64,000 bases of DNA from a virus: positions 32,001 to 96,000 of the IMG/VR virus record IMGVR_UViG_3300035670_000014. One strand, 5' to 3'. The position numbers and the translations under genes were made by a program. The first letter of the stretch is position 1; each line of letters begins with the position of its first letter. Positions 30,999 to 41,491 of the stretch are shown in pieces. A model generated the notes under the pieces. The model searched no databases. It had not been told where the DNA came from and worked only from the letters and a program-made list of their open reading frames with translations.

Positions 30999-33532
30999 AA
31001 TTCCTCTTCTAAACCCCATTCATCAGAATCAGTTGATTCTACTTTGGAGCCAGATTCATTTGCTTGAGCAAGCTTAACTGCCTCAGCAATTGGTATGTGT
31101 ATAAAATTAGAAGCATAAGGATGGAACTTAAAGAACTCAGTTCCCTTGTTACCGTCAATCTTATTCTTGCCAACTATGGCTTCTACAATGGGAAGTTTAG
31201 TTGGGTGAAAGTCCCAGGGATGTTTTACTTCATGAAACCATGGAGACTCCCTGGGGTCCTTATGCAAGTCATTATAAAGGTGGATGATAGCATCGGCATC
31301 ATACTTGAATGCTCTAGCTTCTGCCAGTGACTCGTTAGTCGGCCTACCAGACTTTGTTTTCTTATCAGTTGACGTGTTGTATTCTAATGTACAACCAACT
31401 GATATATCAAACTCGTTAGTCATCTGCTTCAGCTTGTTAGAAACTGAAGTATAGAAAAGCCGGGGCTCGCCCTTAACGGGGAGCTTGTGAGCATTATCTA
31501 TGTGCATGTATATGTTATCATTGGGATATTGGCGTCTCATTCTGATTGCTGCCCGCCTGAAATCCTCAAGATCATAAACATAAGGTATGCCTAGAATCAT
31601 AAATCTTTCTTCGCGTGCGTACCAGTAGGCAAGCTCATAGCCCATCTTAAGAGCATTAAACATATCATCTTTCATGCCATCGGGTAAAACGTTGGCCCAG
31701 TAATTAGGCCTTGTAACCCAATTAAGATGCATAGGAAAACCACCTAGATGTTTATACTTAGGCCAATCCCTGGTAGCCCACTTTGAAAAGATGGCAACTT
31801 GCTTGGTAAACAATGTTTGGACGGAGTCATCTATAGTCATATAGATAACTCTACAGTTATTAGTTTCACTTAGGCAAAGATTGCTGCCCATCCATATACC
31901 GAAGCTAGACTTACCTGCATTCTCTGAACCGCCTATTGCAAGCATCTTGCCCTTGGACCAATCATTAGAGAATACTTTCTGAAAGTCAGGAGCCATAGGA
32001 AATTCATAGCCAGGAAACTCTTCGCCTCGGCTGTCAAATTCTTCCTTGAAAGAAGAAAGTAAGCCAGAGTAAAACTCACCAGATAGGTAATCCGAGTTGA
32101 CTTCGGCATCAAGAGCCATGATCTTAACCTTAGCTTCATCAAGAATAGATGCAGCTTCAGCTGGTGATTTCATAGCAGCGTAAGCTGCTTCTTCTACTGC
32201 TTCCTTTATCCTGGATGCTTTGCTTATCTCTGTCTTATTGACTATAGCATTAACTTCTTCTAAGAGTGTCAGGGTAGAGAAGTCAGTTAGGAATGCAACC
32301 TCTTTAACTAGCGATTCTCTCTGAATCGCAGTAGGGAAGGTAGCAATAACCTGAACAGCTTTCTCTGCAAGCTCCTCTAGTGAAGCACAGTTATCTTTAT
32401 AGTAATCTAGAAGATAGGTAAAAGCAGTAGGGCGGGGAAGTGAAGTAAACTCCCTTACTCCATTCTTCTGGATAAATGAATCAGGATCTTCTCCATTGCC
32501 TATGCTAAGAACAAACTTCTTAGCAGGACCTAGAGAAGAAAGGTGAAGCTGAAGAAGCTTTACTGTAGCTTCCTGACCTGCATTGTCGCCATCTAAGGCA
32601 AAGACAATGTTAGCAGGAGCAAGCTTCCTAATAAGCCTTGCATGTTCATCTGTAAAAGATGAAGAGCAAATAGCTGCCGCAGCAAAGCCGCACTGATGTA
32701 GTGTAAGTGCGTCACCTTGACCTTCTACTATATATAAGGTATCAACTTTGCCTTTCTTAATCAAAGTAGAAGCATTGTTGAAATTATACAGGTAGTTATT
32801 CTTAAGGAAATAAGGTGAATCTAGTAGCTTTGAACCATTCCATTTTGGGTTATCTTTATCAACTGTACCCATGTACCTTGAAGTATAACCAACAGTATTA
32901 CCAAGAGTATCCTTAAATGGAAAGACCAAAGAGTTAGCATTTATGAATCTATCACTAAGACCAAAAGACCTAAGTGCTGATTCACTGTAGCCAATACCTT
33001 CCATTGCCTTAACAAAGTTAGGCCATGAATAGTAACCTAGACCAAAAGATTCTATAGCTTCAGCTGCATCCCAGCCTCTGGAGTCAATAAAGCTTGATAG
33101 AGTTGCATTGCTACCTTGCAGCTCAATCTCAAGATTTCTTGAGAGTATGCCATCTACTACAGAGTAGAACTGCAAATAAGATTGCTTCTTAATATCCTCT
33201 GCAGTCAAAGAAGCAAAGTTAACAGGTATGTCAAGTTCCTTTGCTGCATACTCCATAGTATGAACAAAGTCCTGACCAGTTAATCCAAATCCATTAAATA
33301 GTGCACAAGCTGAAATAGTGTCATGCTTAGCACCACAACCATAACAAACAGCATAAAAATTCTCGGGATCTTTAGTATGAGCCCTAACCTTCATAGAAGG
33401 AGAGCTATCATTATGAGCAGGATTAATACACCTAATAAACCCCTGAGAGTTTGGCTTCATGCCATATAGCTCAAGGTAATCAGGCAGTCTTGCCTTTAAT
33501 GCTTTTGATAATTCATAAAGAGAAGTAATCAA
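30995..33532 (-). CDS. DnaG-type primase / DnaB-like SF4 helicase fusion
   Basis: CHC2 finger (C..PAH...CYGC); TOPRIM IVEGQGD and LDGDNAG, EDPD; Walker A GSENAGKS; YDAD..IHLY; IVGKNK. TTG start with AAGGAG. Confidence 0.92.
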   Translation of the reverse strand: MITSLYELSKALKARLPDYLELYGMKPNSQGFIRCINPAHNDSSPSMKVRAHTKDPENFYAVCYGCGAKHDTISACALFNGFGLTGQDFVHTMEYAAKELDIPVNFASLTAEDIKKQSYLQFYSVVDGILSRNLEIELQGSNATLSSFIDSRGWDAAEAIESFGLGYYSWPNFVKAMEGIGYSESALRSFGLSDRFINANSLVFPFKDTLGNTVGYTSRYMGTVDKDNPKWNGSKLLDSPYFLKNNYLYNFNNASTLIKKGKVDTLYIVEGQGDALTLHQCGFAAAAICSSSFTDEHARLIRKLAPANIVFALDGDNAGQEATVKLLQLHLSSLGPAKKFVLSIGNGEDPDSFIQKNGVREFTSLPRPTAFTYLLDYYKDNCASLEELAEKAVQVIATFPTAIQRESLVKEVAFLTDFSTLTLLEEVNAIVNKTEISKASRIKEAVEEAAYAAMKSPAEAASILDEAKVKIMALDAEVNSDYLSGEFYSGLLSSFKEEFDSRGEEFPGYEFPMAPDFQKVFSNDWSKGKMLAIGGSENAGKSSFGIWMGSNLCLSETNNCRVIYMTIDDSVQTLFTKQVAIFSKWATRDWPKYKHLGGFPMHLNWVTRPNYWANVLPDGMKDDMFNALKMGYELAYWYAREERFMILGIPYVYDLEDFRRAAIRMRRQYPNDNIYMHIDNAHKLPVKGEPRLFYTSVSNKLKQMTNEFDISVGCTLEYNTSTDKKTKSGRPTNESLAEARAFKYDADAIIHLYNDLHKDPRESPWFHEVKHPWDFHPTKLPIVEAIVGKNKIDGNKGTEFFKFHPYASNFIHIPIAEAVKLAQANESGSKVESTDSDEWGLEEEL

Positions 33533-37427: not shown

Positions 37428-39860
37428 TTACCCATTGATAAATTTAATAACGCCGTTCTGTTTAAGTCTAAGAACTGCGGATCTTTCATCTACGCTGTAT
37501 TTAAAGTAGATAATAGACCCTACTTTAATCTTATCTTTATACTCCTCAACTGCATTTGGAAAGAGTGTTAGCTCAGCAACACCCGTCTTGTCCTCAACAG
37601 TGCAAGCATAAAGAGACTTGCCCTTCATCTTGCCTCTTTTTATCTGAATGTCCTCTATTCTGGTGATTACAACTAAACACCTACCAGACTGAGAGACCTG
37701 AGGTACGAGGTTATTAATGTAATCAAGTTCTATAGTAGGCGGTATTTTAATAAAGTCAATAGGGTGAGCTGAAATATATAAACCACAGTACTCACCTTCC
37801 CAGTCTACCATCTGCTTTGTGATTGATCTCTTTTCATAAACAGGAAGTTCAGGAAAAGAAGGCTCTTCTTTTGGCTTAGGAATTATAGGCTTCTTCGGCT
37901 TAGGCTCTGTATATATTTGCTTAGTACCATTCTCATCTATGACGGGAGTGGCAAGTCTGGTTATTACTTTAGTCTTGTAAAGATATTCCCAGTTAGCAAC
38001 TTCTATAGACCATTGCTCTAGTTCTTTATTCTTTAATTTTATATTAGCCTGATTCTCAAGATAAGAATCATACTGATTAAAGTAATCTAGAAGCAAAGGA
38101 AGTGAATCAACAAGGTCTTCTCTCTTGTGACCAAAAGCATCCAGTGCGCCTACTTTAGCAAGGATCGCCAAAGAGCCAGAGTTAACCTTTGATCTGTTGA
38201 TATTAGATAGCCAGTCCTTGAGAGTCTTAGCCTTGTGTACATTGCCGGCGATTAGATAGTTCGCCACAGATTTACCTATACCTTTTAGAATATCAATGCC
38301 AAATCTTATCTTGTTAGCTCCAACCTTGGCAAAGCCAATGTGAGGAGTAGTAACAGAAGGAGGAAGCATTTCTATTCCCATCGCTCTACACTCGTCTATA
38401 TAGGACTTAAGTTTATCTGGCTTATTAGACCTGAGACTCATAAGCTCAATCATAAACTCTACTGTAGAGTAAGCCTTTAGATAGGCGCAAGAGTAAGCTA
38501 TCAATGCATAAGCATAAGCATGTGGCTTGTTAAAGCCATAGCCTGAAAACTTATCAATGTATTCCCATACATAGCTTGCTTCACTCTCTGTAATCTTAGA
38601 GTTCTGAATGCAACCTTGAATAAACCTATCCTTCCACGACTGCATCTCTACTGGGTCCTTCTTACCCATTGCTCTTCTTACATTGTCAGAAGTCTCTTCA
38701 GAGAAGCCAGCAAGAACAGAAAGTGCAGCCATGCACTGTTCCTGGTAAACAAGAACACCGCCTGTCTCGGCTAGGACTGAATCAAGAAGTGGGTGAATCT
38801 TATTCTGAAGTAAGCCTGTTTTCTTGTACTCAATCCAGTCGTCAGTAAGACCATTGTCTTTAGGACCCGGTCTGATTAGTGCGCTAATAGCAGCTAAGTC
38901 TGCAACAGTAGTAGGCTGAACCTCGCTAATAACCTGGAATACATGGGACTCTTCCATCTGGAAAATGCCAGAAACAAATCCCTGGTTTATTAGCGTGAAA
39001 GCTTTAGGATCGTCAAGAGGAACCTCTTCCTGAATCCAGTCAACTGTTTTTCCGATTGCTGCTGTTGTATTCTTGAGTAGATCAAGGTTGTCAATAACAA
39101 GAATGTCAAACTTAATAAGGTTGCAATTCTTCTCAAGAGCGCCAGCTTCCCACTGAGATAAGTAGTACCAATTACCTTGATCATCTTTCTCTCCTTTAAC
39201 CTTACGTAAAGGGATATAGCTGTCCAAATAATCAGAGCCAATAATCACAGCAGAAGCATGCTGAGATTGATTCATAGGTTGCTTGTCCATTGTAGCAACA
39301 CATGAAAATACTTCTTTGTGCTGTTCTATAATCTCAGCGTAAACAGGATCATCCTTAAGGTCAATCCAGGTAGTTGCCTTACCACGATAGCTATCAGGCA
39401 GGCTGTCAGCCAAGGCGCGACCTTCTTCAAAAGTTCCACCTAGTGCTTTTGTAAAGTCAACTGTAGAACTCTTAACAGAATAAGGAGTATAAGTAGTAGG
39501 TCTAATAACACAAAGTTCACCATATTTATTCTGTAATTCTTTTATAATTACATCTTTCCCTGATGGAGAAAAGTCTGTATCTATATCTGGTCCTGCGCCA
39601 GTTACAGTAGAAGAACACCTCTTAGACTTGTCATAGTTATCACTATCAGAAAACAAGTAGAGCAATATGGAGTTACTTTTATTCTCAAGCTTCTTATTGA
39701 TATACTTCTTATCTATTACAATGCGAGTAAAGTCTTCATCGGTGATATACTTTAACTCGAATAGCAAATACCTGAAAGGTACATTCAATGTATACTTTAG
39801 ATAATCTAGCTTCTCATTAGCTTCCCTATTAACAATCTCTAGTTTAGTTTTTAAGTCCAA
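37428..39860 (-). CDS. dnaE: DNA polymerase III alpha, C-terminal part (catalytic palm, fingers, HhH, OB)
   Basis: PDIDTDF, HASAVII, LIKFDIL, GIFQME, ALIRPGP, ETGGVLVYQEQ, GYGFNKPHA, IRFG..LKGIG, E....G.YISAHP. Likely TTG start at 39860 with GGAGA SD. Confidence 0.92.
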   Translation of the reverse strand: MDLKTKLEIVNREANEKLDYLKYTLNVPFRYLLFELKYITDEDFTRIVIDKKYINKKLENKSNSILLYLFSDSDNYDKSKRCSSTVTGAGPDIDTDFSPSGKDVIIKELQNKYGELCVIRPTTYTPYSVKSSTVDFTKALGGTFEEGRALADSLPDSYRGKATTWIDLKDDPVYAEIIEQHKEVFSCVATMDKQPMNQSQHASAVIIGSDYLDSYIPLRKVKGEKDDQGNWYYLSQWEAGALEKNCNLIKFDILVIDNLDLLKNTTAAIGKTVDWIQEEVPLDDPKAFTLINQGFVSGIFQMEESHVFQVISEVQPTTVADLAAISALIRPGPKDNGLTDDWIEYKKTGLLQNKIHPLLDSVLAETGGVLVYQEQCMAALSVLAGFSEETSDNVRRAMGKKDPVEMQSWKDRFIQGCIQNSKITESEASYVWEYIDKFSGYGFNKPHAYAYALIAYSCAYLKAYSTVEFMIELMSLRSNKPDKLKSYIDECRAMGIEMLPPSVTTPHIGFAKVGANKIRFGIDILKGIGKSVANYLIAGNVHKAKTLKDWLSNINRSKVNSGSLAILAKVGALDAFGHKREDLVDSLPLLLDYFNQYDSYLENQANIKLKNKELEQWSIEVANWEYLYKTKVITRLATPVIDENGTKQIYTEPKPKKPIIPKPKEEPSFPELPVYEKRSITKQMVDWEGEYCGLYISAHPIDFIKIPPTIELDYINNLVPQVSQSGRCLVVITRIEDIQIKRGKMKGKSLYACTVEDKTGVAELTLFPNAVEEYKDKIKVGSIIYFKYSVDERSAVLRLKQNGVIKFING

Positions 39861-40248
39861 AGTAATCTCCGTAATCAGGTAAAGTTTCAGACAAAGCACC
39901 AAGGGTAGCAAGAACAGAGAACTCAAAAGTGGTAATACCGAAAGGAACAAACTCTAAAAGTCTAATTGAGTTTAGAATGTCAAGTTTATCAAAGTTATTT
40001 ATAAGAACAGATCCATAACTTGTCCTGTCTGCATTAATCACTTTAGTTATTCCTCTTATTTCCCTTACGGCAAGTTCAACAAAAGGTCCCTGAAAAGTTG
40101 GTGGAGATATATATGTTCCATTGGTTAATCCGGCAATGGTTACTATATAGAAATATGCAAGATTGTGACTTCTTGAATACCATGTAGGAAAACAATAGAT
40201 TGAAGAATCATCAAAATCTAATTTAAAGTAAGATTTGTTTTCACTCAT
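39844..40248 (-). CDS. Orphan protein between the two dnaE halves
   Basis: ATG overlaps the end of dnaE-N (ATGAGTGA); its stop overlaps the dnaE-C start. No intein or homing-endonuclease motif recognised. Confidence 0.65.
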   Translation of the reverse strand: MSENKSYFKLDFDDSSIYCFPTWYSRSHNLAYFYIVTIAGLTNGTYISPPTFQGPFVELAVREIRGITKVINADRTSYGSVLINNFDKLDILNSIRLLEFVPFGITTFEFSVLATLGALSETLPDYGDYFGLKN

Positions 40249-41491
40249 CAAGCTCACCACAGAAGTCAAGAGAAACTTTAACTCTACCTGGGTTTAAGAA
40301 TCTTGAAAAGTAAAATCCATTAGCAATGGGGTCCATATGCTTACCAGTAAGACCCAAAGCCCAAGCAAGGAGAGAGCCACCAGATGAACCTCTACCTGGG
40401 CCAACTGGTATGTCGTTATCTTTAGCTATCTTAATATAGTCAGCAACCATTAAGAAGTAAGAGTTATAAGAGCTATCATCAATCAGATCAATCTCGAACT
40501 TTAGTTGCTTCTTATAAGCGGGAGGAATTGGATCAGTATCTGACAAGTTAAGCCTAGACCTGAGGCCTTCAAAGGCCAGTCTCTCAAGCTCATAGAAAGC
40601 TTCCTCGTTTGACATATGGTCAAACTTAATAGGCGGATTCTTAATAGATGAAAAGAAGTAAGAGCTATCTACCATGTCTGCAACATAGCCAGTATTGTGC
40701 ACTGCTTCCTCGGGTATGTTCCATTGCCTACATAACTCCAAAGCAAAGTCTGTATCATACAACCATGCATTGTAGTCTTGTATTGGATACTTAGAATCCA
40801 GATAAGACATGTGCCATCCAATGCACTGAACTAGACCTCTAAGTTTCCATTGATCTTGATCTGACTGGTGGGCGTCAGCAGTAAGAACCAAGGGAACATT
40901 ATGCTTCTTAGAAAGAGGAATAATAAGCTGATCATTAAATTGTTTCTGAAGGTCAACATTATTAACTTGAACTTCTGCAAAGAAGTTATCTCGGCCAACA
41001 ATATCTCTAATCTTCAAGAACCATTCTTCTGCGAGGTCTAACCTGTTAGCTTTAAAGAATGTTGCCATGTGGCTGGATAAGCAAGTAGAAGTAACTATAA
41101 GGCCATCACAATGCTTAGAGAAAGTCTCTATGTCAATACGAGGAAACCTGTGAAAGCCATCACTAAAGGCATAAGTATTAAGCTTAAGTAAGTTCTTATA
41201 GCCTGTCTCATTCTTTGCAAGGCAAAGAAAGTGTCCGTTATTACCCCAGTCCTCATGTGTCTTTTCAGTAGCAGGGCCAAAAGAAAGATAAGTTTCGTTG
41301 CCAATGATTGGCTTAACTCCAGCTTTCTGACAGCCTTTTGCGAATTCTAGAACACCTGATAAAGTACCATGGTCACTTAATGCACAAGCAGTCATGCCTC
41401 TAGACTTGACAACATCACCAATCTTATCCGCTCTCTGAATGCCGTCCTTTAGAGAATTACTCGAATGAACATGTAAATGTACAAATGGCAT
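40241..41491 (-). CDS. dnaE: DNA polymerase III alpha, N-terminal part (PHP domain + start of palm)
   Basis: FVHLHVHS, ALSDHG, KPIIGNE, LAKNETGYKNL, PRID, ADAH, VGPGRGSSGGSL, FSRFLNPGR, then a stop. Confidence 0.93.
   Translation of the reverse strand: MPFVHLHVHSSNSLKDGIQRADKIGDVVKSRGMTACALSDHGTLSGVLEFAKGCQKAGVKPIIGNETYLSFGPATEKTHEDWGNNGHFLCLAKNETGYKNLLKLNTYAFSDGFHRFPRIDIETFSKHCDGLIVTSTCLSSHMATFFKANRLDLAEEWFLKIRDIVGRDNFFAEVQVNNVDLQKQFNDQLIIPLSKKHNVPLVLTADAHQSDQDQWKLRGLVQCIGWHMSYLDSKYPIQDYNAWLYDTDFALELCRQWNIPEEAVHNTGYVADMVDSSYFFSSIKNPPIKFDHMSNEEAFYELERLAFEGLRSRLNLSDTDPIPPAYKKQLKFEIDLIDDSSYNSYFLMVADYIKIAKDNDIPVGPGRGSSGGSLLAWALGLTGKHMDPIANGFYFSRFLNPGRVKVSLDFCGELDE

Follow-up and report, generated by a model that had tools for sequence, protein, structure and literature searches.

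A phage C-family DNA polymerase predicted to work as two unjoined subunits, with a break in an inserted copy of its own nucleotide-binding palm half

Introduction

Free-standing homing endonucleases can leave genes in pieces. The nrdA gene of Aeromonas phage Aeh1 is reportedly divided in this way (nrdA-a/mobE/nrdA-b, in the account given by Friedrich and colleagues in 2007), and Aeh1-like phages have a second such case in their split gp43 polymerase. Split inteins have also been described in fractured genes, whose parts in some cases enclose an endonuclease gene (Dassa et al., 2009; PMC2677866). In group 2.2 jumbo phages a 'minimal' DNA polymerase III alpha subunit (Pol III alpha) has been predicted, in which an N-terminal NTP-binding and a C-terminal Mg2+/DNA-binding protein reconstitute one enzyme (Iyer, Anantharaman, Krishnan, Burroughs and Aravind, 2021, Viruses 13:63; PMC7824862). 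Here we analyse a C-family (DnaE) polymerase encoded by two genes, dnaE-N and dnaE-C, of an uncultured phage. They lie in a stretch of 64,000 nucleotides (nt), positions 32,001 to 96,000 of IMG/VR record IMGVR_UViG_3300035670_000014 (hereafter the window); the record as a whole, 170,948 bp with direct terminal repeats, is a complete virus genome.

Pfam family searches of the complete genome found no PolA, PolB or further DnaE copy. Since this is the sole polymerase of a complete genome and all the catalytic residues are kept across two coupled genes, a two-subunit enzyme is the best reading of the locus. We put at about 0.75 the probability that the replicative polymerase of this phage is a C-family enzyme of two separately translated, co-transcribed polypeptides, which associate without being joined.

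Results

Two coupled genes share the domains of one polymerase

The dnaE-N open reading frame (ORF) ends in FSRFLNPGRVKVSLDFCGELDE, i.e. FSRFLNPGR followed by 13 residues and the stop codon (Table 1). The initial annotation of this DNA had described this ending and had placed PDIDTDF about 90 residues into a separate gene in a different frame, with its own Shine-Dalgarno sequence and TTG start; the reading frames and the start of the homologue P0122 (relatives are referred to by L and P numbers) bear this out. The single chain expected of a DnaE is interrupted here by a stop codon after the tail, a change of frame, a gene of 134 amino acids (aa) and a separate Shine-Dalgarno sequence and start. 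The ATG of this middle gene overlaps the dnaE-N stop (ATGAGTGA) and its final 17 nt overlap the start of dnaE-C. No terminator-like site was found between dnaE-N and dnaE-C, and the genes are translationally coupled. An alternative genetic code was considered and dropped, as the N frame meets TGA, TAA and more stops, so that reassignment of a stop codon is of no help.

The dnaE-C frame is open from a TTG at 39950, but over its first 30 codons it reads the neighbouring gene out of frame, giving a hydrophobic sequence; the true start is the TTG at 39860, which has GGAG upstream and coincides with the start of P0122. Homologues P0121–P0123 are 815–825 aa long, with matching starts. The 86%-identical P0121 begins four codons upstream (M-E-I-T-L), where the window has ACG for that ATG; this point change (window 39858–39872) has moved the start to the next usable codon, the TTG four codons on.

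Over both ORFs, the Pfam domains keep the canonical DnaE order of PHP, palm, fingers and helix-hairpin-helix (HhH). The DNA_pol3_alpha profile is divided between the two proteins, with positions 2–101 in dnaE-N (E 3.2e-27) and 102–259 in dnaE-C. The halves thus abut exactly between profile positions 101 and 102, so at the Pfam level no part of the polymerase is lost or repeated. The catalytic motifs of DnaE (G-S loop, RFLNPxR, PDxDxDF and the KxD aspartate) are all present and invariant, spread over two polypeptides. We take K250 and D252 of dnaE-C to be the counterparts of E. coli K553 and D555.

Table 1. Features of the split dnaE locus in window coordinates
Feature	Position	Strand	Content or basis
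dnaE-N, 416 aa	40241..41491	-	PHP, nucleotide-binding palm half, 13-aa tail; ORF, Pfam, 17 homologues
PHP domain with full metal-ligand set	40967..41479	-	Pfam PHP, residues 5-175, E 1.3e-37
GRGS, copy 1 (G-S motif, pol-beta-like nucleotidyltransferase fold)	40385..40396	-	R367, G368, S369 invariant across N-fragment alignment
RFLNPGR motif	40283..40303	-	R397, F398, L399, N400, G402, R403 invariant across N-fragment alignment
N-tail VKVSLDFCGELDE	40244..40282	-	conserved pattern [VI]x[VI]x[LI]D[FY]xx[DE][LM]; stop codon 40241-40243
Middle gene, 134 aa	39844..40248	-	third frame; ORF and 6 homologous clusters
Shine-Dalgarno GGAG of dnaE-C	39867..39870	-	6 nt ahead of TTG; upstream sequence ctgattacggagattact, then TTG
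dnaE-C, 810 aa	37428..39860	-	leader, metal-binding palm half, fingers, HhH, OB; homologues P0121-P0123
C-leader, residues 1-90	39591..39860	-	degenerate second copy of nucleotide-binding palm half
PDIDTDF, residues 91-97	39570..39590	-	strand with two catalytic aspartates; D92, D94, D96 invariant
K250-F-D252 (IKFDIL)	39105..39113	-	third catalytic Asp and partner Lys; K250, D252 invariant among C-fragments
Fingers	38601..39089	-	Pfam DNA_pol3_finger, E 6.5e-42
Helix-hairpin-helix (HHH_6)	38115..38378	-	Pfam, E 5.1e-11
OB fold	37500..37646	-	Pfam tRNA_anti-codon, E 4.2e-05, under curated cut-off

Both halves and their new ends are conserved

Homologues of dnaE-N form 17 clusters (396–440 aa, 43–92% identity), all with the same kind of ending. 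The metal ligands of the PHP domain, noted earlier as retained, are invariant (H41, E66, H87, C137, D206 and H208) or nearly so (H5, H7, H9 and D16) in these fragments. The tail is 8–20 aa long, and its first residue may be S, E, D, Q, N, H or T. The ratio of non-synonymous to synonymous substitution rates (dN/dS) in the relatives L002, L003, L005 and L006 is 0.04–0.09 for the tail (taken from L002/L003/L005), 0.11–0.14 for the middle ORF, 0.07–0.13 for the leader that precedes PDIDTDF in dnaE-C and 0.003–0.03 for the polymerase bodies. The low values in tail, middle ORF and leader indicate that all three stretches are translated.

For relatives of the C-terminal half, a profile of the leader plus the first 40 residues of the metal-binding palm half (palm-C) was searched against 1.84 billion representative proteins. 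About 90 of the best 150 representatives are clusters of split C-fragments (750–850 aa) with PDxDxDF at residue 70–105 behind a leader of the type N-x-x-N-S...Y..G.TD, and none of these carries GRGS or RFLN. The survey of the breakpoint proposed with the initial annotation thus finds the same layout many times over, the split form being a large family, and the split architecture is present in 12 IMG/VR loci. A decaying pseudogene or an error of assembly would account for the broken frame, and nothing further speaks for either. Against them stand that the complete genome has no other polymerase, that purifying selection on both halves is strong in relatives, and that the architecture recurs in many independent assemblies (17 N-fragment clusters, the 12 loci and the ~90 C-fragment clusters). 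The recurrence disposes of misassembly, and we assign this explanation a negligible probability.

Other searches were less productive. Viral-contig scans with single proteins returned no close relatives, a metagenome scan with the leader alignment returned nothing, and the N alignment, used in the same way, brought up canonical DnaEs only, most of them bacterial. Among GenBank phages there was no DNA match to the window and no record whose match includes the leader; the GenBank matches to the leader of L021, a split relative, are the ordinary nucleotide-binding palm half (palm-N) of contiguous DnaEs, and the two 'phage' matches inspected are unverified, unannotated records. In the cultured jumbo phage Bacillus phage vB_BauM_KLEB27-3 (OM634661.1, 146701–149259), a single match spans an HNH endonuclease and two genes annotated as 'DNA polymerase III alpha subunit', so that DnaE is divided there as well, though at a different place.

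The break falls in an inserted module

The leader carries NKSNS where GRGSxxGS would be expected, and RFLNP is absent. Over 93 C-fragments, E35 and S64 of the leader are invariant and N60 and N63 nearly so, and neither GRGS nor RFLNPxR occurs in any of them. The initial annotation had remarked that the leader resembles the last helices of dnaE-N without GRGS, and had suggested aligning the two segments. When this is done with hhalign, the window leader is colinear with the N-fragment profiles over 80 columns (E 0.0067), with the N-tail set opposite PDIDTDF, but the probability is just 5.7%, and a canonical palm-N hidden Markov model (HMM) scores the window leader no better than shuffles. The resemblance becomes solid via L021. 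Residues 23–200 of the L021 C-fragment match canonical DnaE in one high-scoring segment pair (E 8e-41), which puts GKPNKCNSSIAYCLGVTDEEP on GRGSGAGSIAAYSVGITDIDP and the leader on palm-N, and the window C-fragment aligns to that of L021 from residue 21, leader included (E 6e-14). With the canonical HMM, none of 500 shuffles scores as high as the leaders of L021 and L015. By transitivity through L021, the window leader is a degenerate copy of the nucleotide-binding palm half, and we regard this assignment as solid.

A few full-length DnaEs from metagenomes hold the leader internally (P0183, P0189, P0198, P0255 and P0210). In P0183, the order after RFLNPGR is CSIYDFELPG, a ~45-aa linker and second palm-N helices ending in ...PNKANSWIAYSLGITNEKPTGQLILIEQGSL-PDVDSDF, and in the insertion-bearing contiguous DnaEs as a group a tail of the type xxYDFEL and an NS-type second copy stand between RFLNPGR and PDxDxDF. 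The L021 leader is ~65% identical to P0183 residues 502–548, the window leader aligns to residues 513–548, and in Pfam residues 469–707 of P0183 fit profile positions 5–260, besides the first copy. Tail and leader together are an insertion module of ~110 aa between RFLNPGR and PDIDxDF, which occurs in one-chain and in two-chain form. Since the same tail and leader are found in frame within contiguous DnaEs, the break lies in the linker of the inserted module and not, as first described, in the bare active-site motif. The proposal that the locus arose by duplication and fission holds in so far as the leader is a real degenerate duplicate; it is not a simple scar of fission in this lineage, as P0183, P0189, P0255 and P0210 carry it as an in-frame insertion.

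This part of the gene receives other insertions as well. The contiguous relatives L030 and L031 have a small hairpin-like insertion (IKIKADGSIAAKDF) at the RFLNPGR/PDID spot, the contiguous insertion-bearing P0210 (1488 aa) has a true intein (Hint and LAGLIDADG, residues ~380–800) in GRG/S, and the C-fragment of L015 (= P0125) has another intein, in the fingers. The ~40 codons round the DnaE active site host an intein, the tail-leader cassette and an intein-like variant.

RNA or protein splicing is improbable

The 690 nt between RFLNPGR and PDIDTDF might be taken for an unrecognised self-splicing intron with the middle ORF as a passenger, so that one mRNA and one protein would result. Like a typical group I intron, the segment is inserted exactly at a highly conserved site, is present in some relatives and absent from others, and carries endonuclease genes in L014 and L015; U...G boundaries can be drawn by eye. 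However, Rfam has no match at E<=1 in 39300–40600 and none at gathering level over the whole window, a negative that holds for the Rfam models, divergent classes outside Rfam being beyond the reach of an Rfam search alone. The folding energy of the interval equals that of shuffles (minimum free energy z +0.18), and the interval is wholly covered by three reading frames, with tail and leader under purifying selection as protein. In contiguous relatives, tail and leader are read through in frame, and L021 has nothing between stop and start and still keeps an 84-aa leader. We consider an intron very unlikely.

Alternatively, protein trans-splicing by an atypical split intein of very small size could ligate the translated halves. 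Phage-like metagenomic DNA is known to contain fractured genes whose parts carry split inteins and flank a free-standing endonuclease (PMC2677866), and the site is an intein hot spot, as the true intein of P0210 illustrates. Nevertheless, Pfam detects no Hint or intein family in N, C or leader, the first tail position lacks a conserved Cys or Ser, and there is no Asn followed by Cys, Ser or Thr ahead of PDID, where the sequences are GAG, GEG, GSL and GAA. The statement in the initial annotation that intein termini are absent is thereby upheld. With a tail of merely 8–20 aa, trans-splicing at this locus is hardly credible.

Structure models leave room for dnaE-N in the palm

Residues 1–330 of the window dnaE-C were modelled in AlphaFold2 with an alignment of split C-fragments only. 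The model is confident (predicted local distance difference test score, pLDDT, 92.3), the sole uncertain stretch being residues 81–90 directly ahead of the catalytic strand, and the leader forms a helical bundle (helices 3–13, 15–24, 29–38, 41–49 and 65–69, pLDDT about 90) ahead of strand E93–97 at PDIDTDF. Structures of Pol III alpha superpose on model residues 88–330 only (4iqj_C, Z 14.1, root-mean-square deviation 3.0, 225 aligned; E. coli residues 398–639), and alignments that take in the leader have deviations of 13–15 Å. Since the leader is off the canonical palm-N position in the model, that place is free for copy 1 of dnaE-N, which keeps GRGS and the arginines. A helical bundle so placed fits a non-catalytic role, and the leader may be a docking surface, as first suggested. 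The fused P0183 was modelled with pLDDT 88.1 and Z of 44–46 to E. coli and Taq Pol III alpha. What the modelling gives is secondary structure, confidence and alignment ranges, and these do not discriminate between the two palm-N copies as the one at the active site.

It is therefore necessary to consider that dnaE-C is self-sufficient, its own leader (copy 2) completing the palm, and that dnaE-N is a separate PHP proofreading subunit whose palm half is a remnant or adaptor. In favour of this, the homology of the leader extends over the entire nucleotide-binding half, its fold is modelled with confidence, and Pfam joins the second copy of P0183 into one continuous palm (profile 5–260). Several observations weigh against the two-subunit enzyme at this point. 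L021-type C-fragments alone show a complete-looking palm sequence, and in the P0183 model the catalytic loops of copy 1, i.e. the GS loop (393–404) and the RFLNPGR region (422–441), have pLDDT below 50, compared to about 80 for the insertion helices; since the model is unsure exactly there, an autonomous dnaE-C keeps some weight. The direct similarity between leader and dnaE-N within the window is statistically weak, the middle gene could be a third subunit, and the complex of N and C is predicted from gene and single-chain data. On the other hand, every leader is without the G-S motif and RFLNPxR, while on N-fragments both are invariant down to 43% identity, which would be unexpected in a remnant, and the leader fails to superpose on the canonical position in rigid structural alignment. 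An autonomous dnaE-C is in our judgement unlikely, and assembly of the active site from two polypeptides, as first proposed, is consistent with the invariant motifs on both halves and with these being the sole polymerase genes, although as read from sequence it is a prediction.

The slot between the halves varies among lineages

The middle gene has six homologous clusters (69–99% identity), every one exactly 134 aa long, and matches nothing in Pfam, PHROG or Atlas, nuclease families included. A GIY-YIG-like reading of its YFYIVTIAGLTNGTYIS, made by eye, was dropped for want of statistical support. In other lineages the content of the gap differs. L014 has a LAGLIDADG homing endonuclease (phrog_4645, E 4e-49; Pfam LAGLIDADG_3) and L015 a broken LAGLIDADG endonuclease gene, while L021 has no gap gene, a single nucleotide separating the N stop from the C start, and yet the 84-aa leader is present. 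In L002–L008, a sister clade, a gene of ~100 aa with a hydrophobic helix occupies the gap (L002:7277-7588, L006:7274-7561; dN/dS 0.11–0.14), by eye unlike the 134-aa gene of the window. The slot between the halves thus appears to be exchanged among lineages. The 907-nt gap of L013 (7178-8153) contains two ORFs on the opposite strand (187 and 135 aa), of which the longer overlaps the N-tail; neither has a Pfam or PHROG match.

A third lineage is broken at RFLNEGR/PDID in a different way (L051:7120-7500, L058:7036-7416, L056:1930-3130, L033:6028-6350). Its N ORF has a beta-rich tail of ~52 aa with a weak Intein_splicing match (E 0.043, below cut-off), after which a short ORF (MSKITKIKIEDRKGFVRVSLPD) re-creates RV..SLPD; then come 37 nt (GAG TAG and a 9-bp hairpin, GCCCCCATC/GGTGGGGGC) and IDVDF in the +1 frame. 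In L033 the gap is just 7 nt (CCT GAC TAG C GAT ATT), and take-off at GAC with landing at GAT would give the canonical LPDIDTD. From its sequence the arrangement is a candidate for ribosome hopping within the catalytic motif, of the kind known from T4 gene 60. The gap of L056 holds a 284-aa ORF without Pfam match.

The split state is scattered among canonical DnaEs

Two trees were built, one of 139 rows over 480 residues after PDID and the other a 50-row IQ-TREE. On the first, split and canonical DnaEs are interleaved and well-supported branches force at least 16 changes; on the second, placing all canonical rows on one side is rejected (delta log-likelihood 1103, p-AU 2e-5). The split proteins P0211, P0248, P0164 and P0125 (L015) are 49–58% identical to the contiguous L120, L020, L028 and L011, and just 25–38% identical to other split C-fragments. 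The window phage itself falls among nine rows that form a clade of split proteins only, and the sister of this clade is canonical. Together with the LAGLIDADG genes in the gaps of L014 and L015, this interleaving calls for a revision of the fission event first supposed, as the split state does not form one clade. The exact presence or absence at a highly conserved site, along with endonuclease genes, is the pattern of a homing element, and the scattered split state points to repeated gain by a mobile cassette or, as an alternative, repeated precise loss. To test for cassette transfer, leader identities were set against body identities; the outcome was indecisive, since inteins in some bodies distort the comparison and the leader core is subject to lineage-specific constraint.

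We therefore advance only tentatively, as a possible but doubtful extension, that the tail-(endonuclease)-leader unit is a mobile cassette of an undescribed kind, which would home into the most conserved dnaE codons, those between RFLNPGR and PDIDxDF. It would keep the host enzyme working without RNA or protein splicing, by means of its own pair of complementary protein pieces, copied from the nucleotide-binding subdomain of the target and holding the halves together. Such a cassette would explain the scatter among canonical DnaEs (AU p = 2e-5), the closeness of split C-fragments to particular canonical DnaEs rather than to other split ones, and the endonuclease genes in the gap of some lineages. 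If mobile, it would represent a third way, beside introns and inteins, for a selfish element to persist inside an essential active site.

Discussion

We propose that in the two-subunit enzyme dnaE-N would contribute PHP, probably the proofreading nuclease, and the nucleotide-binding palm half with GRGS and RFLNPGR, while dnaE-C would contribute the metal-binding palm half (PDIDTDF and the KFD aspartate), fingers, HhH and OB. The inserted module is made up of a short tail of strand-like character, a linker and a second nucleotide-binding half, decayed and without GS and RFLNP. In the window phage and ~90 related clusters a stop codon, an optional gene and a new start take the place of the linker. 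One active site would then be rebuilt from both proteins, with copy 1 supplied by dnaE-N. The N-tail and residues 81–90 of dnaE-C may pair beside this site, and tail and leader probably form or stabilise the interface, so that the leader helps to hold the halves together.

The pol-beta-like palm of a bacterial-type replicase is usually treated as one folding unit. The polymerase described here would be a natural and widespread case in which the nucleotide-binding and the metal-binding halves of the palm are separate proteins; the enzyme has to copy a 171-kb genome with sufficient processivity and accuracy. The case lends itself to testing how the G-S loop meets the DxD strand, and two-piece C-family polymerases could be engineered from its natural split site and possible docking parts. 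There is also a consequence for annotation, as gene callers list the halves as 'partial' or duplicate dnaE genes.

Among known systems, the contiguous insertion-bearing DnaEs share with the window phage the tail and the NS-type second copy, but join them by a linker of ~45 aa where the window phage has a stop, a gene and a start. The Aeh1 genes in pieces are comparable in that the cut in an essential enzyme is close to the active site and leaves adjacent genes, which in L014 and L015 have an endonuclease between them. Genes of the Aeh1 type are not spliced and their pieces assemble non-covalently, as we propose for the window polymerase. The differences are that the window gap has no recognisable endonuclease and that the cut falls within an insertion that duplicates part of the target; to our knowledge, the latter has not been described for NrdA or gp43. 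The cyanobacterial split DnaE intein sits at another position of DnaE. The fractured genes with split inteins (PMC2677866) resemble the present case as replication genes in two pieces, DnaE being a known host, and differ in the intein hallmarks, which are absent here. Jumbo phages provide the nearest precedent, a Pol III alpha split at the same subdomain boundary (PMC7824862). That version, however, has no PHP or other domains, is encoded by distant genes and exists alongside a family B polymerase, whereas the window phage has PHP, fingers, HhH and OB, adjacent coupled genes, no PolB and a decayed second copy of the N-half on dnaE-C.

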